Notes: a model not told the origin generated them from the letters alone. Shown: positions 3,266-35,700, counted from the stretch's first letter. The stretch is 64,000 bases of DNA from Acidimicrobiia bacterium (GCA_027494165.1 JAOSJM010000005.1:1452461-1516460), one strand, 5' to 3'. Made by a program: numbers and translations.

Positions 3266-4603
3266 TCAGCCGTCCCCGAACCAGCTCGCGTCGCCGAAGG
3301 CGAGGACCGTCCCGTCGGCGGCGACCAGCCAGTAGCCGTTCCCGGTCGCGGTCGGGACGACGCCGACCACGGGCGAGTCGAGCGACCGGTCGCCCGCCGA
3401 GCCGAAGAAGCGGGCGTCGCCGAACGTGAACACACCGCCGTCGGAGGCCACGAGCCAGTAGCCGTCGCCGGTGGGGGTGGGCGCCATCCCCATGACGGGC
3501 CGGTTGAGCCGGACGTCGCCGGTGGAACCCAGGAAGCGGGCGTCGCCGAACGTGAACACACCGCCGTCGGAGGCCACGAGCCAGTAGCCGTCGCCGGTGG
3601 GGGTGGGCGCCATCCCCATGACGGGCCGGTTGAGCCGGACGTCGCCGGTGGAACCCAGGAACCCGGCGTCGCCGAACGCGAAGACGCCGCCGTCGGCAGC
3701 GACGAGCCAGTAGCCGTCGCCGGTGGGGGTGGCGGCCATGCCCACGACGAGCTCGTTGAGGCGCGCGTGGCCGGTGGAGCCGAAGAACCCGGCGTCGCCG
3801 AAGGCGAAGAGGCCGCCGTCGGCGGCCACGAGCCAGTAGCCCCCGCCCGTGGGGGTCGGGGCCGCCCCCACCACGACCCAGGCGATGGGCACCCGGGCCA
3901 TCGAGCCCCGGTCGACCGCGTCGCCGTGGACGGCGACACCGCCCAGACCGGTGACCGTCGCGTATCCCTGCCCGTCGGCGCTGGGCAGCAGGCCGACCAC
4001 GTCGGCCCGGATCGGGTCGAGCCCGAGGTTCCCGCCGTCGCCCACCCACTCCCAGTGCCAGGGCTCGGGGCAGGCGCTGCCACCCGGCTCCGCCCAGCCG
4101 GGGTGGTTCCAGCCGACCGGGCCGGCCTCGCGCTTCAGGAAGGCGTAGGCCGGCGAGCCGAAGGTCAGCGTCCCGTCCGGGTCCTCGAGGTCGGCCGCCT
4201 TGCCCCACCCGTGCATCGACCGCCCCACCGGCTTGCCCGTCGGACTCGTCCCCACGCTCGCCACGCAGGCGGGGTTGCCGCCCGACAGGGCCTGCTGACG
4301 GATGACGACCTGCTCCTGGAGCGGCCGGTAGCACTGCTCGGCCCCGAGGCCCACCCCCTCGGCCCGGGCCAGCGAGAACAGGAGGCCGAGGCTGGGCCCC
4401 GTGCCCCGCGCCGCCAGGCAGCCCGGCCCCACCCGGACGAGCTCGCTCGCGGCGACCTCGCCGTTGACCTGGCCCGAGAGGGAGTTGGGCCGGTTCTCGG
4501 GGTGGATGGGGGTCGCCGCGCCCGCCGGCAGCGCCACGGCGGTGGCGAGCACGGCGACGGCGGCGAGCAGCAGCGGACCGGTCCGGCGGGTGAGGGTGCG
4601 CAT
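3266..4603 (-). CDS. secreted peptidase M15 (VanY-like D-Ala-D-Ala carboxypeptidase) domain protein with six C-terminal ~40-aa repeats
   Basis: Signal peptide LLLAAVAVLATAVALPAGAA. M15 motif SMHGWGKAADL. About six repeats of GYWLVAxDGGVFxFGDAxFxGSTG follow. A 117-bp exact tandem DNA duplication lies inside the gene (3419-3538 and 3539-3655). Confidence 0.75.
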   Translation of the reverse strand: MRTLTRRTGPLLLAAVAVLATAVALPAGAATPIHPENRPNSLSGQVNGEVAASELVRVGPGCLAARGTGPSLGLLFSLARAEGVGLGAEQCYRPLQEQVVIRQQALSGGNPACVASVGTSPTGKPVGRSMHGWGKAADLEDPDGTLTFGSPAYAFLKREAGPVGWNHPGWAEPGGSACPEPWHWEWVGDGGNLGLDPIRADVVGLLPSADGQGYATVTGLGGVAVHGDAVDRGSMARVPIAWVVVGAAPTPTGGGYWLVAADGGLFAFGDAGFFGSTGHARLNELVVGMAATPTGDGYWLVAADGGVFAFGDAGFLGSTGDVRLNRPVMGMAPTPTGDGYWLVASDGGVFTFGDARFLGSTGDVRLNRPVMGMAPTPTGDGYWLVASDGGVFTFGDARFFGSAGDRSLDSPVVGVVPTATGNGYWLVAADGTVLAFGDASWFGDG

Positions 4604-6072: not shown

Positions 6073-7981
<1,909 letters not shown>

Positions 7982-7985
<4 letters not shown>

Positions 7986-8210
7986 ACCCGGGGTGCCCGC
8001 GGGCACCGGTCAGCGCCGGGGTCGTGTGGTCGTAGAAGCCGCGCCCGGACTTCATCCCCAGGTGGCCGGCCGCGACCATCTGGCGGAGCACGCCCTCCTG
8101 AACCCGGGGTGCCCCGCGGGCACCGGTCAGCGCCGGGTCGTGTGGTCGTAGAAGCCGCGCCCGGACTTCATCCCCAGGTGGCCGGCCGCGACCATCTGGC
8201 GGAGCAGGGG
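7982..8210. repeat. direct tandem duplication (~115 bp x2) of the 3' end of the 3-hydroxyacyl-CoA dehydrogenase gene
   Basis: The unit cctcctgaacccggggtgcc(c)gcgggcaccggtcagcgccggg(g)tcgtgtggtcgtagaagccgcgcccggacttcatccccaggtggccggccgcgaccatctggcggagca occurs twice back to back. Copy 2 is the real C-terminus of the minus-strand gene. Confidence 0.85.
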
Positions 8211-11428: not shown

Positions 11429-12052
11429 GTGGCCGTTGGGTACGGTGAGCGGGTGCCGCCGAGGGTGCTCGTCGTCGACAACTACGACTCGTTCGTCTAC
11501 AACCTCGTGCAGTACCTCGGCGAGCTCGGGGCCGAGCCGGTGGTGCACCGTCACGACGCCGTCACCCTCGAGGAGATGGACGCGCTCGGGCCCGACGCCG
11601 TGCTCGTGTCGCCCGGGCCGGGCCGGCCCGGCGACGCCGGCGTCTCGAACGCGGCCATCCGGCACTTCGGCGAGCGGGGCGTACCGGTGCTGGGCGTCTG
11701 CCTGGGCCTGCAGTGCATCGGCGAGGTCTACGGGGGCCGGGTCGTCCGGGCGCCGTACGTGATGCACGGCAAGACGTCGCTGATCCACCACCGGGGCGAG
11801 GGGGTCTTCCGAGGCCTGCCCGACCCCCTCACCGCGACCCGGTACCACTCCCTCGTCGTCGACCGGGCCTCGGTCCCCGACGTGCTCGAGGTGACCGCCG
11901 AGTCGGAGGACGGGCTCGTGATGGGGCTGCGCCACCGCGACCACCCGATCGAGGGCGTCCAGTTCCACCCCGAGTCGATCCTCACCGCCGGCGGCCACGA
12001 CCTGCTCCGCAACTTCCTCGCCGCCGCCGGGACCTCCGGCGCCCACCGCTGA
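11429..12052 (+). CDS. pabA: anthranilate/aminodeoxychorismate synthase component II (glutamine amidotransferase)
   Basis: Class-I GATase motifs are present: [28 protein letters not shown] and QFHPES. Confidence 0.9.
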
Positions 12053-12100
12053 ACCCGCCCGCCGGAACCTCCGGCGCCCACCGCTGACCCCGCCCGGCGG
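12030..12100. repeat. tandem ~35-bp duplication spanning the pabA stop codon
   Basis: cctccggcgcccaccgctga(a/c)cccgccc(g)ccgg occurs twice in tandem. Confidence 0.7.
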
Positions 12101-12120
12101 GCACCGGTCCCGGTTCGCGC

Positions 12121-12300
12121 TCCTCCCCCTACCCCCGGGTTGGCGCGCTTTCGGGGCTGTGGACCCCGATTCCGCACCAACCCGGCGAGGAGGAGGCGCA
12201 CCAACCCGGCGAGGGAGGGTGCGTTCCGGCCGGATGCCGTGCCCGGGTTGGCGCGCTTTCGGGGCTGTGGACCCCGATTCCGCACCAACCCGGCGAGGGG
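12121..12300. repeat. two copies of a 56-bp nested-palindromic intergenic element (locus 1 of the family)
   Basis: cccgggttggcgcgctttcggggctgtggaccccgattccgcaccaacccggcgagg appears at about 12133-12188 and 12239-12295. Outer arms GGGTTGGCGCG/CGCACCAACCC and inner arms CGGGG/CCCCG predict a hairpin. The same core recurs near 33.5 kb and 35.5 kb. Confidence 0.85.
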
Positions 12301-12309
12301 GAGGGTGCG

Positions 12310-20381: not shown

Positions 20382-23030
20382 ATGAGAGCGTTCTGGGACG
20401 GGCTCGCCACCGTGATCGCGCGTCGCTTCCGGCTGGTGCTGGTGCTGGCGCTGCTCGCCACCGCCGGTCTGGCGGTCGGGATCCCCCTGCTGGACTTCGA
20501 GACCAGCCAGGTGTCGCTGATCGGCGAGGAGAACCCGGTCGCTCAGGACAACGAGCGGTTCCAGGACGAGTTCGGCGGGGAGCCGATGATCGTGCTCCTG
20601 ACCGCGCAGGAAGGCCACGACGTCCTGGACCTCTTCGACGAGGAGAACCTGCCGAGGCTCCAGGCGTTCGACCAGTCGCTGCGCGACACCGGCCTCTTCC
20701 ATGCCGTGCTCAGCCCGCTCGTCGCGCTCGAGTTCGCCCGCAACCAGATGACGGTCGGCAACGGGCTCTTCGAGGCCGCCTCGGTCCGGGAGCAGCAGCG
20801 GGCCCGGGAGGAGGCGGCCGCCGCGGGCGCCGGCCCCGAGGAGCAGGAGGCCGCCGCCGCGGAGGTGGCCGCCGCGTTCACCGAGCGGTTGCTCGCCCTC
20901 GCCGGCCGGCTCGAGGCCGCCGAGCCGGGGATCACGGCCCGGGCTCTCACCGATCCCGCCTCGATCAGCAACAACGACGAGTTGCTCGAGAACCGCGACC
21001 TCCTCGAGGTGCTGCTCTACGAGGACGAGAACGAGAGCATCGTCCGGCCCGTACTGCGGGACAACTTCCTGGACCGCACCCACGCGGTCACCATCGCCCG
21101 CCTCAACGGGAACGTGGACATCGCCGACATGGGCGCGGCGGCCGACGCGGTGCAGGACGCCGTGCGGGAGGCGGGCTTCGAGGGCTTCGACGTCCTCGCC
21201 ACGGGCCCACCCGAGCTGCTCCAGGACATCAACGACTACCTCCAGGGCGGCATGGCCACCCTCGGCGGCCTCTCGTTCCTGGTGATGATCGTCGTGCTGT
21301 GGTTCGTGTTCCGCGTCCGATGGCGCCTCCTCTCGATGGTGATCGTGATCCTCGGGGCGATCTGGGGCTTCGGGATCATGGGCTACATCGGCCTGCCCCT
21401 CACGCTCATCACGATCTCCGGGCTGCCGATCCTCATCGGGATCGGCGTCGACTTCTCGATCCAGGCCCACAGCCGCTTCGAGGAGGAGATCGACCACGAC
21501 GGAGACGCCGAGTCGGCCGTCCGTCGGGTGATGCGCTGGCTCACCCCCGCGCTGGCGGTGGCGATGATCGCGGCGGTGGCCGGCTTCCTCGCCCTCCAGG
21601 TCTCCGAGGTGCCGCTCATCCGCGACTTCGGCGTCATGCTCGCCCTCGGGATCTTCGCCCTCTTCGTCGCCGGGATCACCGTCCCGACCTCGATCCTCGT
21701 GTGGCGCGAGCGCCGGCACCCCACCCCCGCCGGCGCGGCCAGCGTCCCCCACGGCGTGCTCGAGCGGATCGTCCGGTGGATGTGCTTCAGCGCCCGGACC
21801 TTCATCCTCCCGGTCGTGCTGGCCGGGCTCGGCGTCATCTTCGTGGGCCTGGCCCTGGAGGGCCGCTTCACCATCCAGACCGACCCCGAGGAGTGGATCC
21901 CCCAGGACGGCCGGACGGTGCGGAGCCTCGAGGAGCTCCGCGAGGACACGGGGTTCTCCAGCGAGCTGCAGCTCCTCATCGAGGCCGACGACGTGACCGC
22001 GACGCCGGTGAGCGAGTGGATCCAGGTCTTCACGATCGAGCAGGCCGGCTACGCGAACACGCTCGAGGCTCCCGAGATCGAGGGCAAGCACGAGGCCCTC
22101 ATCCGGGGCACCAGCCTCCCGGCCGTGGCCATGAGCGTGACCGGCGTGCCGCCCGGTCAGGAGGAGGTCGAGCTGCTGCTCGGCGACGCCCTGGAGGAGG
22201 ACCCCGAGTACACCGTCGCCCCGCGCGACTTCGTCGTCCAGTTCATGAGTTCGGACCTGACGAGCACCGCGCTCATCTTCCCGATCACCGACGTCACGCT
22301 CGGGGAGCGCGAGGAGCTCGTCGACGAGATGCTGGCCGACCTCGAGCTGCCACCCGGCTTCGACGCCGAGGTGGGCCTGACCGGGCCGCCGGAAGGCGTG
22401 TCGGTCCTGCCGGCCGGGCTCGTGTACGTGGGCGTCGAGCTGGTCGACGCGCTGGAGGCGAACCGGGCGCTCATGACCTGGCTCGCCCTCGGGGCCGTGG
22501 CGCTGTGGCTGCTGATCCGTTACCGGCGGATCGTGACCACGCTGCTCCCCCTCGTGCCGGTCACGATCGCGGTCGGGCTGTCCTCCCTGGTGATCTTCGC
22601 CACCGGCATCGAGCTGAGCCCGCTCACGAGCGTCACCGGCCCGCTCGTCATCGCCACCTGCACCGAGTTCTCGGTGCTGATCCTGGCCCGGTACGTGGAG
22701 GAGCGCGAGCGGGGGCGCGACCCCGACGACGCCGTCGCCCACGGCGCGGTGCGCATCGGCCGGGCGTTCGTGGCCTCGGGTCTCACGACGGTGGGCGGCT
22801 TCGGGGTGATGGCCTTCTCGGCGTTCCCGCTGCTGCGGGACTTCGGGATCGTCGTGGCGCTCAACGTGCTCGTGGCCCTGGTGTCCGCGCTGGTCGTGCT
22901 GCCGCCGCTGCTCATGTGGGCCGACCGGACGCCGTGGCTGAAGACGTTCTCCCCCGGGGAACGGCCCGGGATGCTCGCGGGGGCGGACGAGGTGGCGCCG
23001 GCCCGGACCGGCGGGCCCTCGCCTGGCTAG
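20382..23030 (+). CDS. MMPL-family RND-type membrane transporter
   Basis: 882-aa ORF with two 6-TM bundles separated by periplasmic domains. The sequence follows the MMPL pattern (e.g. GIGVDFSIQ, TGPLVIATCTEF). Confidence 0.85.
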   Translation: MRAFWDGLATVIARRFRLVLVLALLATAGLAVGIPLLDFETSQVSLIGEENPVAQDNERFQDEFGGEPMIVLLTAQEGHDVLDLFDEENLPRLQAFDQSLRDTGLFHAVLSPLVALEFARNQMTVGNGLFEAASVREQQRAREEAAAAGAGPEEQEAAAAEVAAAFTERLLALAGRLEAAEPGITARALTDPASISNNDELLENRDLLEVLLYEDENESIVRPVLRDNFLDRTHAVTIARLNGNVDIADMGAAADAVQDAVREAGFEGFDVLATGPPELLQDINDYLQGGMATLGGLSFLVMIVVLWFVFRVRWRLLSMVIVILGAIWGFGIMGYIGLPLTLITISGLPILIGIGVDFSIQAHSRFEEEIDHDGDAESAVRRVMRWLTPALAVAMIAAVAGFLALQVSEVPLIRDFGVMLALGIFALFVAGITVPTSILVWRERRHPTPAGAASVPHGVLERIVRWMCFSARTFILPVVLAGLGVIFVGLALEGRFTIQTDPEEWIPQDGRTVRSLEELREDTGFSSELQLLIEADDVTATPVSEWIQVFTIEQAGYANTLEAPEIEGKHEALIRGTSLPAVAMSVTGVPPGQEEVELLLGDALEEDPEYTVAPRDFVVQFMSSDLTSTALIFPITDVTLGEREELVDEMLADLELPPGFDAEVGLTGPPEGVSVLPAGLVYVGVELVDALEANRALMTWLALGAVALWLLIRYRRIVTTLLPLVPVTIAVGLSSLVIFATGIELSPLTSVTGPLVIATCTEFSVLILARYVEERERGRDPDDAVAHGAVRIGRAFVASGLTTVGGFGVMAFSAFPLLRDFGIVVALNVLVALVSALVVLPPLLMWADRTPWLKTFSPGERPGMLAGADEVAPARTGGPSPG

Positions 23031-23199
23031 CGGGGGTACAGACACCCGAGACCCAGGTTCCGCTGACTCGGGTGTCCCTACCGTCGCTCAGCGGGGGTAC
23101 AGACACCCGAGACCCAGGTTCCGCTGACTCGGGTGTCCCTACCGTCGCTCAGCGGGGGTACAGACACCCGAGACCCAGGTTCCGCTGACCCGGGTGTCC

Positions 23200-23216
<17 letters not shown>
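23031..23216. repeat. 3 x 62-bp perfect tandem repeat, each unit containing a 10-bp-stem hairpin
   Basis: The unit agcgggggtacagacacccgagacccaggttccgctgactcgggtgtccctaccgtcgctc occurs three times, with one substitution in copy 3. The internal inverted repeat is GACACCCGAG...CTCGGGTGTC. It lies between the convergent MMPL and livF genes. Confidence 0.9.
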
Positions 23217-23939
<723 letters not shown>

Positions 23940-23943
<4 letters not shown>

Positions 23944-25875
23944 GCGTGGTCCCCCAGGTAGGCCTGGACGACGCGGGGGTCGGCCCGGACGGCGTCGGGC
24001 GTCCCCTCGGCGATCTTCTCCCCGTAGTCGAGTACCGCCACCACGTCGGAGAGCGCCATGACCAGCTCCATGTGGTGCTCGATGAGGAGGACCGTCACTC
24101 CCTCGTCGCGGACGGTGCGGATCAGGTCGGCGAGTTCGTGGAGGTCATTGGGGTGCATGCCGGCGGCCGGCTCGTCGAGCAGCAGGAGATCCGGGTCACC
24201 GGCCAGGGCCCGGGCGATCTCGAGCCGGCGCTGGTCGGCGAAGGGGAGCGCGTCGGCCCGGACGTCGGCCCGGTCCTCGAGGCCGACGAACCGGAGGAGC
24301 CCGCGGGCCCGGTCCCGCACCTGCCGCTCCTCGGCCCGGGCGGGCTCGGGGAGGACCATGGACCGGGCGAGCCCGTAGCGGGTGCGGGAGTGGGCCCCCA
24401 CCATGACGTTCTCCAGGACGGTCATCCGCCGCCAGATCTGGCAGCCCTGGAAGGTGCGGGCGAGCCCGGCCTGGCTGGCCCGGTGGGGCGGGAGCCCGGC
24501 GACGTCGCGGCCGTGGAAGCTGACCTGGCCGGCGTCGGGCCGGTAGAAGCCGGTCACGACGTTCACGAAGGTCGACTTGCCGGATCCGTTGGGACCGATG
24601 AGGGCATGGACGGTCCCGGGCGCGACGGCGAGGTCCACCGCGCTGAGGGCGGCGAGGCCTCCGAAGCGCTTCGTGAGGCCCGAGACCGACAGCAACGGGC
24701 CCGCCTCGGCGGTCCCGGGTCGGGGCCGGGGACGGGGTCGTGCGAGCTCCTCGGGGAGGGGCCGGGCCGGGCCGGGCCGGCGGGCCGGCCGCCGCCGTTC
24801 CCGGAGATGGCGGACCTGGCCGACCAGCCCGCGGGGAAGGAGGATCGCGTTCACCACCACGAGGACGCCGAGGACGAGTTGCTCGCTGCGGCCCAGCCAC
24901 TCGCTGGTGGACTTCCCACCCAGGTCCACCCCGAAGCCGAGCGTGAAGACGAACGCCCCGACCACGGGGCCGGCCAGCGTTCCCAGCCCCCCGAAGAACA
25001 GGTAGATCACGTAGCGGAACGACTGACCGATGGTCTGGGTCCCGTCGAGCACGGCAACCTGGAGGGTGGTCTGGGCGGCGAGGACGCCGGCCAACGACAC
25101 GAGGCCGGCCGACACCGAGAACGCCGACACCTTGTACCAGTAGGTGTTGACGCCGCAGGAGCGCGCCGCCAGCTCCGACTCGCGGATGGCCTGGTAGGCC
25201 CGTCCCCACCGGCTGTGCACGAGGTTCCAGCTCACGTAGACGGCGATCACGAGCAGGGCGGCGCCGATCCAGTAGAGCCCCACGAGGTACCGGTGGGGGT
25301 TGTCGGCGGGGATCCAGGAGAAGGCGGTGTCGAGCGGCTCGGCCACGGTCCGGCCGCCCAGGCCGCCGAAGGCACCGTCGAAGAGGAGCGCGATCGACGT
25401 GGAGATCAGCGCGAAGGCGAGGGTGACGACGGTCAGGTAGAAGCCCCGGAGGTGGCAGCAGGTGAGGGCGAGCAGCGCGCCGAAGACCATGCCGGCGAGG
25501 AAGGCCGCGGGGAACCCGAGCCAGGGGTCCAGCCCCCAGTCCTCGACCGCCCACACGGCGCCGACGAACCCGCCGTACAGGAAGAACACGTGGTGGCCGA
25601 GCGAGAGGAGGCCGGCGTAGCCCAGCAGCAGGTTGAGGCCGACGACGGCGGTGGCCCACCACATGGCCGTGACGCCGAGCTGGATCCAGAACCGGTCCTC
25701 GGCCTGGCTCTGGCCGAACCAGGCGAGGAACGCGATCAGCGCCAGCCCGGGCCCCAGGCGGACGGCCCACCGGGAGAGCGGGGTGAGCCCGCCCGAACCT
25801 CGGATCGCCCGACCCCCGGCGTCGGGGGGCCGGGGCGGCCGGCGCGGCCGGGGCGGAGCCGGTGTCGAGGCTCAT
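23940..25875 (-). CDS. fused branched-chain amino acid ABC permease (LivM) / ATP-binding protein (LivG), apparent frameshift near 25824-25829
   Basis: The permease TM region and the ATPase (GPNGSGKST, LLLDEPAAG) lie in one ORF. The true N-terminus (MSLDTGSAPAAPAAPAP from ATG 25873-25875) is in a neighbouring frame. A run of six G (plus strand) needs one base removed to join them. The start overlaps the livH stop. Confidence 0.75.
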
Positions 25876-26874: not shown

Positions 26875-28465
26875 CTAGTGGACCTTGCAGTCGCTGGTGA
26901 GCTCGATGTCCTCGCCGGTGGCGTCGGGCGGGTCGACCGTGCAGAGGGTGCCCCACCCGCCTTCGAGGATCTCGGTGACGGTGTCGGGGAAGGCCCGGCG
27001 GTTGGCCTCGAGGGTCGGGCGCACGAGGTGGGTGGGGCCGACGTAGTCGGGGAAGGCGGGCAGCCACACCTCCTCCCACTCGCGGCCGAGCTGGTAGGGA
27101 GGGTCGGTCTCGGCGGGGCCCGTGTGGCGCTCGAGGGTGATGAGGACGAGCTGGTCCTCGGTGATGGCGAGGTGGCGGTCGGGTTCGAAGCCGTACTCGA
27201 GGCCGGCGAAGGTGGTCGTGAGGCCCTCGAGGGCGGTGACGACGGCCTCCCGGTCGGTGGTCCCGGCCCGGCGGACGGCCTCGACGAGGGCCCACAGGCC
27301 GTTGGCGGGGGACTCCTCGCCCCCGGTGGCGGGGATGCCGAGGTAGTCCTGCATCCAGGTGCGGATGGGGAAGGTCGGCAGGCCGATGAGGCCGCCCATG
27401 TGCCAGGTCGTGAGGCTCCCGGTCTTCGCCGCGTCGCCGGCCAGCTCGGCCCACTTCTTCTCGCCGGTGCCGCCGGGCCAGCCCATCACGTGCGGGCGCC
27501 AGGCCGGGCCCTTGGCCGTGGGGGGTGTCGACGTAGCCGGCACCGAGGGCGTCGAGCCCCTTCACGATCCCCGCGACGCTCTCCGCGGCTCCCCAGAGGC
27601 AGAGCGCCTGGGGAGCCGACTGCTGGAGCCGCTGGAGCTGGGCCCCGAAGTCGGCGGTGAAGAGGGTGAACTCCTCGACGCCGGCGACCGGCATGTCGTG
27701 CTTGGCGACCGCGTGCTCGAAGCTCTCCCGGAACGTCTGGCTGATGGTGCTGTCGTAGGCCAGGCCCACGCTCGCGTAGCCCCGGTCCTCCTTGGCGTAG
27801 CGGACCAGGAGGTCGAAGGCCATCTTGTCGGGCTGGATGAACTGGAAGATCGAGCGCTCGGGGACGTCGGGGTAGAGGAGCCCCTGGGACCACATGTCGT
27901 AGAAGACCGAGATGATCGGGATGCCGTCACGGGCGATCTGGGGGCGGGCCTCCTTGAGCCCGATGGGCGTGCACCACAGGATGCCGACGACGTCGGGGTC
28001 GGCGACGAGCTGGGCGTAGGCCCGGTTCGTGGCGTCGACCAGCTCCTCGGCCTTGGCGTTCACGATCTCGAGGGTGACCTTCGTGCCCTTGACGAGGCCC
28101 TCGCGCTCGATGTGCTCCATGGCGGCCCGGAGCGAGCGGTCGACGACGTCGCCGACGAACTGGCCGAGGCCCTCGAGGGGGGCGATGACGCCGATCTTCA
28201 GGCTGGACGGCAGGGTGGTGCCGCCGTCGCCTCCGCCGCTCCCGCCGGTCCCCGTCGTGCTCCGGGTGCCCCCCGTGCTCGGGCTCCCGCCGGAGTCCCC
28301 GCCGTCGCCGTCGCCGCCGCCGCACCCGGCGAGAGCGCCCCAGGCCCCGATCAGGGCCATCCCGGCCAGGCTGCTGCGGGCGGCCCACTCCATGAACACC
28401 CGCCGGTCGACGGGGCGGCGGATCAGGTCGTCGGCGCTGATGCGGATGGGCTCGTGCTCGGCCAC
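26875..28465 (-). CDS. ABC transporter substrate-binding lipoprotein (LivK/amide-binding family), paralog 1, apparent frameshift near 27520-27525
   Basis: Tat/lipoprotein signal RRVFMEWAARSSLAGMALIGAWGALAGCGG followed by a periplasmic binding fold. The C-terminal 222 aa (ORF 26875-27543) are in another frame. Removing one G from the six-G run reconstitutes YVDTPTAKGPAWRPHV, which matches the paralog. Confidence 0.75.
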
Positions 28466-28577
28466 GGCCGCCTCCTGTGTGGGGCCCCCGGAGGGCGCGG
28501 ATCCGCTGGAAGTCGGGCGAGTGTGACCTATGCGACGATCGGGTGCAAGAGGGCGAGCCCGACCCGCCGTCGCCTGC

Positions 28578-30134
28578 TCAGTGGATCTTGCAGTCGTTGC
28601 TGAGCTCGATGTCCTCGCCGGTGGCGTCGGGCGGGTCGACCGTGCAGAGGGTGCCCCACCCGCCTTCGAGGATCTCGGTGACGGTGTCGGGGAAGGCCCG
28701 GCGGTTGGCCTCGAGGGTCGGGCGCACGAGGTGGGTGGGGCCGACGTAGTCGGGGAAGGCGGGCAGCCACACCTCCTCCCACTCGCGGCCGAGCTGGTAG
28801 GGAGGGTCGGTCTCGGCGGGACCCGTGTAGCGCTCGAGCGACACCAGCACCACCTGGTCCTCGGTGATGGCGAGGTGGCGGTCGGGTTCGAAGCCGTACT
28901 CGAGGCCGGCGAAGGTGGTCGTGAGGCCCTCGAGGGCGGTGACGACGGCCCGCCGGTCGGTGGTCCCGGCCCGGCGGACGGCCTCGACGAGGGCCCACAG
29001 GCCGTTGGCGGGGGACTCCTCGCCCCCGGTGGCGGGGACGCCGAGGTAGTCCTGCATCCAGGTGCGGATCGGAAGCGAGGGCAGGCCGATGAGGCCGCCC
29101 ATGTGCCAGGCGGTGAGGGTCCCGGTCTTCGCCGCGTCGCCGGCCAGCTCGGCCCACTTCTTCTCCCCGGTCCCGCCGGGGGAGCCGAGGACGTGCGGGC
29201 GCCACTGCGAGCCCCGGGCCGTGGGCGTGTCGACGTAGCTCGCGCCGATCGCGTCGAGGCCCTGGACGATCCCGGCCGTGTTCTCGGCCAGGCCCCAGAC
29301 GAAGAGGCAGTGGCTTCCCTGGTCCCCCAGCCGCTGGAGCTGGGCGCCGTAGTCGGCGCTGAAGATGTTGAACTGCTCGACGCCGGCCACCGAGAGGCCG
29401 TGCTTGTCGATGGCCCGCTCGAACCCCGTCCGGTAGACCTCGCCGATGCTGCTGTCGTAGAAGAGCCCGGCGCTGGCGTAGCCGCGGTCCTCCTTCGCGT
29501 AGCGCATGAGGACGTCCATGGCCATCGAGTCGGGCATGAGGAGCTGGAACACCGAGCGCTCCGGCCCGTCGGGGTAGAGCCAGTCCTCGGACCAGGCGTC
29601 GTAGAAGACCGAGATCACCGGGATGCCGTCGCGGGCGATCTGGGCCCGGGACTCGGGGAGCCCGACGGGCGAGCACCAGAGGATGCCGACGACGTCGGGG
29701 TCGGCGACGAGCTGGGCGTACGCCTTGCCCGTGGCGTCGGCCAGCTCCTCGGCCTTGGCGTTCACGATCTCGTAGGAGACCTTCGTGCCCTTGACGAGGC
29801 CCTCGCGCTCGATGTGCTCCATGGCGGATCTCAGGGAGTGGTCGACGATGTCGCCGATGAACTTCCCGAGCCCCTCCATGGGCGCGATCACCCCGATCTT
29901 GAGGGTCGGCGGGAGCGTCCCGCCGTCGCCCTCGCCGTCGCCGGTGCCGGTCCCGGTGGTCCGCCCGGTCCGGTCGGAGTCGTCGTCGCCGCAGCCGGAC
30001 AGCCCGCCCCACGCCCCGAGCAGGGCCATCCCGGCCAGGCTGGTGCGCCCGGCCCACCGGAGGAACACCCGGCGGTCCACCGGGTGGCGGACCACGTCGT
30101 CGGCGGGGACCCGGAGAGGCTCGTGCTCGGACAT
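28578..30134 (-). CDS. ABC transporter substrate-binding lipoprotein (LivK/amide-binding family), paralog 2 (intact)
   Basis: ATG 30132-30134 gives MSEHEPLRVPADDVVRHPVDRRVFLRWAGRTSLAGMALLGAWGGLSGCG and a 518-aa protein. Its 3' ~650 bp are about 95 % identical in DNA to paralog 1. Confidence 0.85.
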   Translation of the reverse strand: MSEHEPLRVPADDVVRHPVDRRVFLRWAGRTSLAGMALLGAWGGLSGCGDDDSDRTGRTTGTGTGDGEGDGGTLPPTLKIGVIAPMEGLGKFIGDIVDHSLRSAMEHIEREGLVKGTKVSYEIVNAKAEELADATGKAYAQLVADPDVVGILWCSPVGLPESRAQIARDGIPVISVFYDAWSEDWLYPDGPERSVFQLLMPDSMAMDVLMRYAKEDRGYASAGLFYDSSIGEVYRTGFERAIDKHGLSVAGVEQFNIFSADYGAQLQRLGDQGSHCLFVWGLAENTAGIVQGLDAIGASYVDTPTARGSQWRPHVLGSPGGTGEKKWAELAGDAAKTGTLTAWHMGGLIGLPSLPIRTWMQDYLGVPATGGEESPANGLWALVEAVRRAGTTDRRAVVTALEGLTTTFAGLEYGFEPDRHLAITEDQVVLVSLERYTGPAETDPPYQLGREWEEVWLPAFPDYVGPTHLVRPTLEANRRAFPDTVTEILEGGWGTLCTVDPPDATGEDIELSNDCKIH

Positions 30135-30325
30135 GACCCCGTCCCTTCGCTGGCCCGTCGGGGGCCGAGGGGTGGCCGCCGGCCCGCGTGGCGGGATCAT
30201 GGCGGAGGCGAGGCGGGGTCGCAAGGACCCGTGTCGTGGCGCCGATCCGGCGATCGGATCGTGCGCCGGGCCGACCGGGGCCATGGAGGAGCGGCCCCCG
30301 TCGCCTGGTAGATTGCGACGCTCGC

Positions 30326-30409
<84 letters not shown>

Positions 30410-33514: not shown

Positions 33515-33795
33515 TCCTGCCGGGTCGGCACGTTTTCGGGGCTGTGGACCCGGTTCCGCTCCAACCCGGCCGAAATGACATGGGGTCGGCGCGCCGGGGC
33601 TCTGGACCCCGATTCCGCTCCAACCCGGTTGAGTGACATGCCCGGGTCGGCGCGTGCGGGGCCGGTCTCCTGCCGGGTTGGCGCGCTTTCGGGGCTGTGG
33701 ACCCCGTTTCCGCTCCAACCCGGTTGAAATGACATGCCCGGGTTGGCGCGTGTTCGGGGTTCTGGACCCCGATTCCGCTCCAACCGAGCGCTCCG
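33515..33795. repeat. tandem array of 4-5 degenerate ~72-bp nested-palindromic units (locus 2 of the family)
   Basis: Units of the form CGGGT(C/T)GGCGCG...CGGGGCTGTGGACCCCGATTCCGCTCCAACCCGG+TTGAAATGACATGCC. One unit carries an extra half-copy. The units are contiguous and have no unique spacers. Confidence 0.85.
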
Positions 33796-33798
33796 GGC

Positions 33799-34701
33799 TC
33801 AGGGCTCGACGAGGACACCGACGACGTCGTGGACCGCGTAGGCCGTGCCGGCGGAGAGGCGCGCGCTCCCGACGGGGACCGGACGGCCCGCGATGCCGGG
33901 GCCGGTCAGGACCACGTCCGCGGTCCAGGTCGCCCGGACCGTGAGCGAGCGGGAGCCCCGGATCTCGAAGTCGAGCCGCGCCGCGGGGTCCCCCGCCCGG
34001 CCCGGCAGCTCGGAGGCCTCGGCGGTCTCGCCGCGGTCGGTCTCCCATGCCACGGCGGCGAGGCGCGCCGTGCCGGTGACCGTCCACGGCCCGATCGACA
34101 CCGCGACCGCCACCTCGGTCGGGCCGTCGTACCACAGGTCCGTGGCCATCCCCACCAGCCCGACGGGCGGGCTGGTCCCGGTGCGCGGCGGCGGGACCTG
34201 GGACAGGGCCCGGGCCCAGATCTCCCCGATCGACGGGACCGGTGGCAGCGGAGGTGGGGCGGGAGGCTCCCCGCCGAGGTCGTAGGGCACGCAGACCGTC
34301 TCGGACGCGAGCAGGTTCCCGGCCAGGTCGAGGGTGAGGAGGCGGTACGACCAGCCCAGGGCGTGCTCCGGGGGTCCGGTGTCGCAGAGGTGGTCGAGCG
34401 GCGTCCCCCCGGCTCCCGGGGAGTCGGCCGCGACCCACACGTGCTGCACGACGTCCGGACCACCCGCCCCGCCCGGGCCCACCGCCTCCCAGGTCCCCGA
34501 GCCGCCGGACCCGGCTGTCCCGGGAATCCCGATCTCCACCGTGATCGTGCCGTCGGGGTCGAGGCCGCCCCCGTGGGACGGTTGCCCGTCGGCGAGCGCG
34601 GTCCGGGGGACGAGGAGGACGATGGCCGCGGAGACCACTGCGGCGGCGACCGACGTCGTGCGCCGGGCGGGGCCGGGCGGGTCGGTGGCCCGTCCGGTCA
34701 C
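33799..34701 (-). CDS. secreted hypothetical protein
   Basis: GTG start with signal peptide VTGRATDPPGPARRTTSVAAAVVSAAIVLLVPRTALA. About 300 aa, Pro/Gly-rich with two Cys. The start overlaps the upstream lipoprotein stop (GTGA). Confidence 0.55.
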   Translation of the reverse strand: MTGRATDPPGPARRTTSVAAAVVSAAIVLLVPRTALADGQPSHGGGLDPDGTITVEIGIPGTAGSGGSGTWEAVGPGGAGGPDVVQHVWVAADSPGAGGTPLDHLCDTGPPEHALGWSYRLLTLDLAGNLLASETVCVPYDLGGEPPAPPPLPPVPSIGEIWARALSQVPPPRTGTSPPVGLVGMATDLWYDGPTEVAVAVSIGPWTVTGTARLAAVAWETDRGETAEASELPGRAGDPAARLDFEIRGSRSLTVRATWTADVVLTGPGIAGRPVPVGSARLSAGTAYAVHDVVGVLVEP

Positions 34702-35449: not shown

Positions 35450-35700
35450 CCCAATCCGGTCGAGAGGGATGAACCGTCCCCGGTCGGGTTGGTGCGGGAT
35501 CGGGGTCGAGAACCCCGAAGCGCGCCAACCCGGGATGGAGGGAGATGGAGGGAGATGGAGGAGCGTGCCAACCCGGCGAGACGACGGGTCCGGTTGGTGC
35601 GGGATCGGGGTCGAGAACCCCGAAAGCGCGCCAACCCGGGATGGAGGAGATGGAGGGAGATGGAGGAGCGCGCCAACCCGGGATGGAGGGGGGGACGGAG
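35450..35700. repeat. two ~110-bp units of the palindromic element in opposite orientation, each followed by a (GGAGGGAGAT)n-like purine microsatellite (locus 3 of the family)
   Basis: ggttggtgcgggatcggggtcgagaaccccgaa(a)gcgcgccaacccgggatggagggagatggag... occurs twice. It is the reverse complement of the 12.1-kb and 33.5-kb core. Confidence 0.85.

Follow-up and report, generated by a model that had tools for sequence, protein, structure and literature searches.

What is a tandem array of hairpins doing between the stop codons of two convergent transporter genes in an Acidimicrobiia genome, and how did its copies arise? The array lies between a gene for an MMPL-family transporter and a facing livF gene, inside the stretch of 64,000 nucleotides that was analysed as a whole (the window). 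A preliminary description had proposed that near-perfect tandem copies of a hairpin-forming unit occupy this position, that they behave like a mycobacterial MIRU/VNTR locus, and that they could act as a bidirectional terminator array for the two operons. The presence of the units between convergent MMPL and livF genes was confirmed, with three copies and one substitution. The unit sequence was as quoted; its length was not, as the quoted sequence has 61 letters rather than 62 and recurs with a period of 61, and the coordinates given were 2 nt too high.

Tandem Repeats Finder placed the array at 23029-23214, with a period of 61, 3.0 copies, 99% matches and no indels, and a repeat search of the array returned three 64-nt copies spaced 61 nt apart. 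Counted head to tail, there are 3.05 copies, and the sole difference among them is a T-to-C substitution at 23190, position 40 of the unit in copy 3. The pattern GACACCCGAG-N16-CTCGGGTGTC was matched three times in the window, against 0.02 matches expected by chance. Copy 1 (23029-23089) consists of a 60-nt imperfect palindrome plus one nucleotide, C; copy 2 (23090-23150) is identical to it and is the only copy clear of both neighbouring stop codons; and copy 3 (23151-23211) carries the substitution and contains the stop codon of LivF. No strand is assigned to the copies. The array closes with AGC (23212-23214, likewise without strand), the first three nucleotides of a fourth unit, so that the unit is bordered by a 3-nt direct repeat offering microhomology. 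With a period of 61, 99% identity and units of the 10-100-bp class arranged head to tail, the array is a minisatellite in form. The recent expansion that had been read from the near identity of the copies is probable: one substitution in 183 nt would indicate either a recent event or ongoing homogenisation.

Short-read data from other samples bear on whether the repeat is real. Logan contigs from SRR11288142, SRR11288141 and SRR30756395 carry the same locus at 99.77-99.96% identity to the window, and the three contigs end at 23058, 23058 and 23055, that is, 27-30 nt into copy 1. If these short-read assemblies are taken as having k = 31, then 23058 lies exactly k-1 (30 nt) into copy 1, the point at which a de Bruijn unitig has to stop if two different bases precede the 30-mer that begins at 23029. 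The repeat and the start of the array at 23029 are therefore supported independently in three read sets, whereas the copy number is not given by these break points. By arithmetic, a 186-nt array of 61-nt period becomes unambiguous once reads or k-mers reach 126 nt, and a count of three can thus be resolved. On the right flank, the Logan contigs that carry LivH end inside livG/livF. The array explains why short-read assemblies break at this locus. The sample accessions themselves returned no mention in the searchable literature. Although tandem repeats are error-prone in assemblies, the chance that an assembler made the copy number or the tandem arrangement is negligible, given that three independent k = 31 assemblies branch within copy 1, two of them at exactly 30 nt, that copy 3 has a substitution of its own, and that k-mers or reads of at least 126 nt suffice to resolve the array.

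The genes on either side are well defined. The MMPL/HAE3-family transporter gene (RND superfamily) occupies 20382-23030 on the + strand and encodes 882 aa, with a Pfam MMPL match at E = 3e-44 and a sterol-sensing domain; its product is 100% identical to the protein P0001, whose cluster includes MCZ7527903.1, annotated as 'MAG: MMPL family transporter [Acidimicrobiia bacterium]'. Facing it on the - strand is the gene for a LivF-type branched-chain amino-acid ABC transporter ATPase (23200-23943; Pfam ABC_tran and BCA_ABC_TP_C). LivF has 247 aa here and is 100% identical to P0123 (243 aa), which is encoded on the same 1.54-Mb contig as MCZ7527903.1. Upstream of livF, a LivM-LivG fusion of permease and ATPase (Pfam BPD_transp_2, ABC_tran and BCA_ABC_TP_C) runs from 23940 to 25874, also on the - strand, the end at 25874 being derived from the 644-aa length called on Logan contig L155. 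The stop codon of this fusion overlaps the livF start by 4 nt and its start overlaps the livH stop, and livF is the last gene of a liv-like operon that comprises the LivM-G fusion, LivH and binding proteins. Within this operon, two adjacent Peripla_BP_6 genes (26877-28496 and 28580-30165) are tandem paralogues with segments 75-96% identical; their first 300 nt are 96% identical, which suggests recent duplication or gene conversion. A tRNA at 30326-30409 on the + strand was the sole Rfam match in the window, and the crude GC3-based gene map, which draws a long - strand ORF there, is unreliable at that point.

The array reaches into both flanking genes, a point absent from the preliminary description. 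At one end, the MMPL stop codon TAG (23028-23030) shares 2 nt with the start of the array, and at the other end the LivF stop codon (read as cta at 23200-23202) sits in the outer stem of copy 3, which encodes both this stop and the three LivF codons before it (E-R-R). The AGC that ends the array doubles as the last conserved codon of LivF (GCT, the Ala of YLGA). Among LivF homologues listed with the YLG motif, 103 of 118 end in YLG plus one residue, typically as YLGA and stop, while the protein here ends in YLGAERR and stop. As the last three bases of the array are the LivF Ala codon, the array supplies LivF with three extra codons and a stop. Tandem duplication leaves the outer junctions unchanged; neither reading frame is altered by it, and the array is accordingly free to expand or contract. 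From this geometry, both the LivF and the MMPL proteins should be unaffected by copy number. The nearest relatives of the MMPL protein are only ~57% identical and have other neighbours, and the spacer has no comparable counterpart there.

Each unit can be written as AGCG-GG-GGTA-CA-GACACCCGAG / 16-nt loop / CTCGGGTGTC-CC-TACC-GT-CGCT plus one C, the partner arm of the palindrome being GGTA..GGCACCCGAG. The inverted-repeat search recorded this palindrome (I10) with arms of 22 nt that are 82% complementary. At the centre of copy 1 is a core hairpin (23041-23076) with a perfect 10-bp stem and a 16-nt loop, to which the hairpins at 23102-23137 in copy 2 and 23163-23198 in copy 3 are equivalent, all three without assigned strand; the core stem extends to 19 pairs. 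For a single unit as RNA, the predicted folding energy is -36.6 kcal/mol (z = -5.0) for the + strand and -35.6 kcal/mol (z = -4.3) for the - strand; for the entire array it is -126 and -132 kcal/mol on the two strands (z ~ -6). Because the arms reach the unit borders, an alternative set of hairpins centred on the junctions is also possible: at 23067-23111, copy 1 contributes its 3′ arm and copy 2 its 5′ arm to the stem, and a second hairpin of the same type can form at the next junction (23128-23172), again with no strand assigned. The first of these was computed to fold at -31.3 kcal/mol over the 46-nt stretch 23066-23111. The substitution at 23190 yields an A.C mismatch in + strand (MMPL-sense) RNA and a G.U wobble in - strand (livF-sense) RNA; it would thus keep the livF-sense pairing and not the MMPL-sense pairing, although as one data point this is given no weight.

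Whether the unit is confined to this locus was addressed by searches at several scales, and the answer was mixed: one related locus was recovered, and no other copy of the 61-bp unit was found in the rest of the 64-kb window. The related locus lies behind P0059, a second MMPL gene that this organism has on the same 1.54-Mb contig, a paralogue with 43% identity. In the stretch downstream of P0059 (3853-3905 on Logan contig L153, from SRR11288141, and 3279-3331 on L154, from SRR30756391), the sequence 25 nt past the TGA reads CTCGGGTGCCGATACCGTCGCTGAGCGG, which is identical at 24 of 28 positions to the 3′ arm of the unit and the inter-unit junction, CTCGGGTGTCCCTACCGTCGCTCAGCGG. The match scored 16, compared with a maximum of 12 among 2987 random window segments, which speaks against a unit private to this locus. 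The part of the unit conserved at the paralogous MMPL locus is the junction-centred portion. Both contigs stop right at the match (...CGCTGAGCGG), so that only the 28-nt stretch is seen, without its partner arm; an identical break point in two samples suggests that the sequence downstream of P0059 is itself repeated, in tandem or dispersed. Coding DNA of the MMPL gene and P0059 aligns at only 69-72% identity and the 3′ tails do not align, which makes common descent of the flank from an ancient gene duplication unlikely. Judged from these sequences, the unit is probably a member of a small multi-locus family of palindromes at gene 3′ ends, represented at two loci, the second of them partial.

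Wider searches gave no further relatives. The exact-stem pattern GACACCCGAG-N12-20-CTCGGGTGTC matched only unrelated hairpins in 185,579 representative genomes, the source genome not being matched; the 22 single matches obtained there come from unrelated phyla and have unrelated loops and flanks, and were rejected as chance hairpins or terminators. When the stem was loosened to R/Y, the metagenome matches were swamped by a gut family (GACACCCGGGTGTC...), and none of those listed shows BLAST similarity to the unit, which is no evidence of absence from metagenomes; five viral loci retrieved with the loosened stem pattern were negative in the same comparison. A family-core pattern gave 0 matches in viral contigs, and plasmids and phages gave no BLAST match to the unit. 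The gut metagenome loci (L028-L147, for example L032-L069) hold an abundant unrelated repeat on human-gut contigs, in which two palindromic boxes (GACACCCGGGTGTY / RAGACCCGGGTGTC) are separated by ~9 variable bases.

The window has a second, dispersed palindromic family, with copies near 12.1, 33.5 and 35.5 kb, to which the array had been described as unrelated in sequence. This was borne out: the HMM of that family scores the array at E = 17-31, a background level, and kinship through a shared GGTTCCGCT-like stretch was rejected on the same score. The family consists of ~55-nt hairpins of the form CCGGGTTGG...GGACCCCGATTCCGCNCCAACCCGG, of which 8 copies are clustered in the 64 kb (12134-12196, 12242-12304, four copies within 33519-33799, 35483-35545 and 35588-35650), some of them followed by GGAGG-rich stretches; it has no Rfam match and looks like the main REP-like repeat of this genome. 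Set against these 8 copies, the family to which the array unit would belong, if real, appears sparse, with no further copy in the window.

Active mobility was considered as another route: a MITE, or a REP served by a RAYT-type transposase, would have inserted again and again, head to tail, at this site, a reading with which the second related locus behind P0059, the position on stop codons and the new stop given to LivF are all consistent. On the - strand, GTAG also stands at the base of the core stem, as it does in REPs recognised by RAYTs. However, a 4-mer could be there by chance, and the perfect 61-bp phasing, the 1-nt spacer and the 99.5% identity are what slippage would produce, and not what separate insertions would. 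Apart from AGC there is no sign of a target-site duplication, and in the window and the few short contigs available from this organism no transposase was identified. Repeated insertion of a mobile palindrome is therefore very improbable.

Several known repeat and RNA classes were also considered. A CRISPR array was rejected, as the 16-nt 'loops' between the arms are identical in all three copies, and a coding repeat likewise, as the period is not a multiple of three (61 mod 3 = 1) and stop codons occur in all frames (TGA on the + strand, TAG and TGA on the - strand). A riboswitch or sRNA was set aside for want of an Rfam match: a scan of the whole window at gathering thresholds found nothing at the array, and in a permissive scan of 22500-23700 the best E value was 0.2, all matches lying far below gathering scores. 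The comparison with MIRU/VNTR loci held in part. Like MIRU-VNTRs, the array is built of tandem extragenic units in the 40-100-bp range that touch the stop or start codons of neighbouring genes, and its shape is that of a tandem minisatellite touching stop codons. Membership in the MIRU family did not hold. MIRUs insert at start codons within operons, where both neighbours share one orientation, and their short ORF is coupled in translation to the gene that follows (PMC12548453), whereas the genes here are convergent and the stops and period leave no coupled ORF. MIRU-VNTRs form a family spread across several loci, and their copy number changes by slippage. The unit here differs in being a hairpin, and its host is not a mycobacterium.

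The proposal of a bidirectional terminator array was not supported: the hairpins are strong on both strands, but the U-tract is absent on both. As canonical Rho-independent terminators, the hairpins would each directly release RNA polymerase arriving from either gene; they are GC-rich, they lie right behind both stop codons, and a convergent arrangement is the usual place for bidirectional terminators, in which one symmetric GC-rich hairpin serves both facing transcription units. Bidirectional intrinsic terminators are, however, flanked by A- and U-tracts, and the array, which is also triplicated, has neither. Runs of three or more T or A were absent from 22990-23260, so no U-tract exists on either strand; of the two elements of a canonical intrinsic terminator, the GC-rich hairpin is present and the U-rich tract (7-9 nt directly 3′) is missing, and a terminator scan detected no terminator-like site at the array. 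In Mycobacterium, the high-GC actinobacterial system that has been studied best, hairpins without a U-tract fail to terminate the RNA polymerase in vitro, and NusA and NusG do not change this (PMC3993855). In addition, the stems start in or at the stop codons, so that terminating ribosomes would unfold the outer copies. The lack of a U-tract after the hairpin on either strand means that this is not a canonical intrinsic terminator, and an array of such terminators is an improbable description of the locus. Structures without U-tracts have been proposed to stabilise RNAs or to define 3′ ends after downstream factor-dependent termination, and have been likened to REPs (PMC3993855); by analogy, a role as 3′-end barrier or stabiliser is the most likely one, ahead of that of a canonical terminator.

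The closest structural parallels are indeed with the REP/BIME elements of E. coli and other proteobacteria. These are extragenic palindromes, imperfect and 30-60 nt long, in which a mismatch bulge is conserved; they are located mostly in 3′ UTRs and also between convergent genes, as single units or in arrays of 1-12, and usually without a U-tract; the unit here, an imperfect palindrome in the 30-60-nt range at gene edges, between two stop codons, has a comparable position. REPs bring about partial, Rho-dependent termination and form a barrier against 3′-to-5′ decay (bioRxiv 10.64898/2026.03.23.713779; PMC3993855). The 12-hairpin REP325 of E. coli is both a partial Rho-dependent terminator and an mRNA stabiliser, and RNAs ending in its hairpins form a ladder; where REPs lie between convergent genes, their presence correlates with raised expression of the two (bioRxiv 10.64898/2026.03.23.713779). 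The array nevertheless has no sequence relationship with REPs and comes from a different phylum. In REP arrays, Y units take turns with Z units of the opposite orientation, and there are linker motifs; the units here are identical and follow one another head to tail, 1 nt apart. A genome has REPs in the hundreds, and the array unit is known at two loci.

A second parallel is found in Mycobacterium. TRIT is a bidirectional palindrome without a classical U-tail that overlaps the stop codon (about -8) and is reported to be restricted to Mycobacterium (PMC3152330), where it marks defined mRNA 3′ ends (PMC3384566). The array shares with TRIT a sequence-conserved, palindromic hairpin that sits at the ends of genes, in a high-GC actinobacterial host, and overlaps the stop codon. 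TRIT differs in having its own consensus and in occurring as 147 dispersed single copies, and it is not described as a tandem array. On these comparisons, the array is built, and would work, like REP/BIME and TRIT elements while being a member of neither by sequence or by taxon.

With moderate confidence, we favour the view that the unit is a REP/TRIT-like extragenic palindrome that was amplified locally by slippage and acts as a two-way barrier and stabiliser at mRNA 3′ ends. Its origin would be a single palindrome from a small family of the REP/TRIT kind that settles at gene 3′ ends. The first duplication may have occurred by slipped-strand mispairing between the AGC triplets bordering the unit, with the hairpin bringing the triplets together, and the third copy by slippage or unequal exchange between 61-bp copies. 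Transcription from either side would then place a hairpin of ~ -36 kcal/mol from every copy in the 3′ UTRs of both mRNAs, where the hairpins are predicted to protect the transcripts from 3′-to-5′ exonucleases and to define their 3′ ends. They may also hinder RNA polymerase from running on into the antisense of the facing gene, via pausing, factor-dependent (Rho/NusG) termination or collision-assisted termination. A ribosome that terminates at the stop codon in copy 1 or in copy 3 would unfold the hairpin of that copy, leaving at least the middle copy always free, and a permanently free middle hairpin is a possible selective reason to keep more than one copy. This functional reading is drawn by analogy with distant organisms, E. 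coli and Mycobacterium.

Other duplications and hairpins occur at gene ends elsewhere in the window. At 7978-8206, a 116-bp tandem duplication (two copies, 98% identity, two compensating 1-nt indels) has a unit that holds the stop codon of a + strand gene (6381-7985) and the palindromic hairpin GGTGCCCGCGGGCACC between convergent stops, and that also takes in ~80 nt of the 3′ end of a - strand gene ending at 8127; it is the second duplication in the window to span a convergent stop-to-stop hairpin. A further small duplication, the third that is located at the 3′ end of a gene, lies at 12024-12101, where a 35-bp unit present in 2.2 tandem copies includes CGCCCACCGCTGA, the stop codon of a + strand gene (11429-12052), and carries a small GCCGG/CCGGC hairpin. 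Events of this kind thus recur here and are tolerated at 3′ ends. Two other convergent gaps, 2834/2899 and 54570/54621, hold single GC-rich hairpins without T-tracts, as would be expected if this organism used such hairpins generally. A periodic repeat of a different character is found at 3283-3926, where 4.5-5 copies of a 126-bp unit, 72-85% identical, lie inside a - strand ORF of 445 aa (3266-4603) that presumably encodes a repeat-domain protein with 42-aa repeats.

The duplications at 7978-8206 and 12024-12101 suggest a general tendency of this genome to duplicate gene 3′ ends, and they bear on the alternative that survives best, in which the array is a neutral minisatellite private to its locus. 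Under this alternative, an intergenic hairpin was duplicated by replication slippage and tolerated because the reading frames stay unchanged, with no family and no extra function. The single substitution in 183 nt and the AGC microhomology at the unit borders agree with it, as does the absence of any other copy within the 64-kb window, and the sequence data are accounted for just as well by a purely neutral duplication that has no function. However, the 24/28 match behind the paralogous MMPL gene, where contigs break as well, is at odds with a private origin, and the replacement of the normal LivF stop looks more like an element landing on a stop codon than like native spacer. We regard a purely neutral, private array as possible, though not probable, and retain the locally amplified 3′-end palindrome as the preferred reading.

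As a locally amplified extragenic palindromic repeat, the array is of an ordinary known bacterial kind, here met in a poorly studied phylum, and it introduces no new system. What is new is its overlap with both stop codons, the extension of LivF by three codons, the repeat signature in three read sets, and the relative behind a paralogous MMPL gene. That the two known sites both lie behind MMPL-family genes could be chance, or it could reflect a shared 3′ regulatory element. The array could also serve as a VNTR marker for typing strains of this Acidimicrobiia lineage, which is uncultured and present in at least 6 sequencing runs. More speculatively, and in our estimation doubtfully, such units could be Acidimicrobiia-specific 'portable 3′-end modules' that target stop codons, bring a replacement stop, serve both genes and amplify in situ, with copy number tuning read-through and mRNA stability as a strain-variable rheostat. 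For high-GC Actinomycetota that lack U-tract terminators, the locus adds a data point on how mRNA 3′ ends are marked, and if both the family and a copy-number effect are true, it would provide a compact natural test, with one versus three hairpins in both orientations, of termination versus RNA stabilisation.
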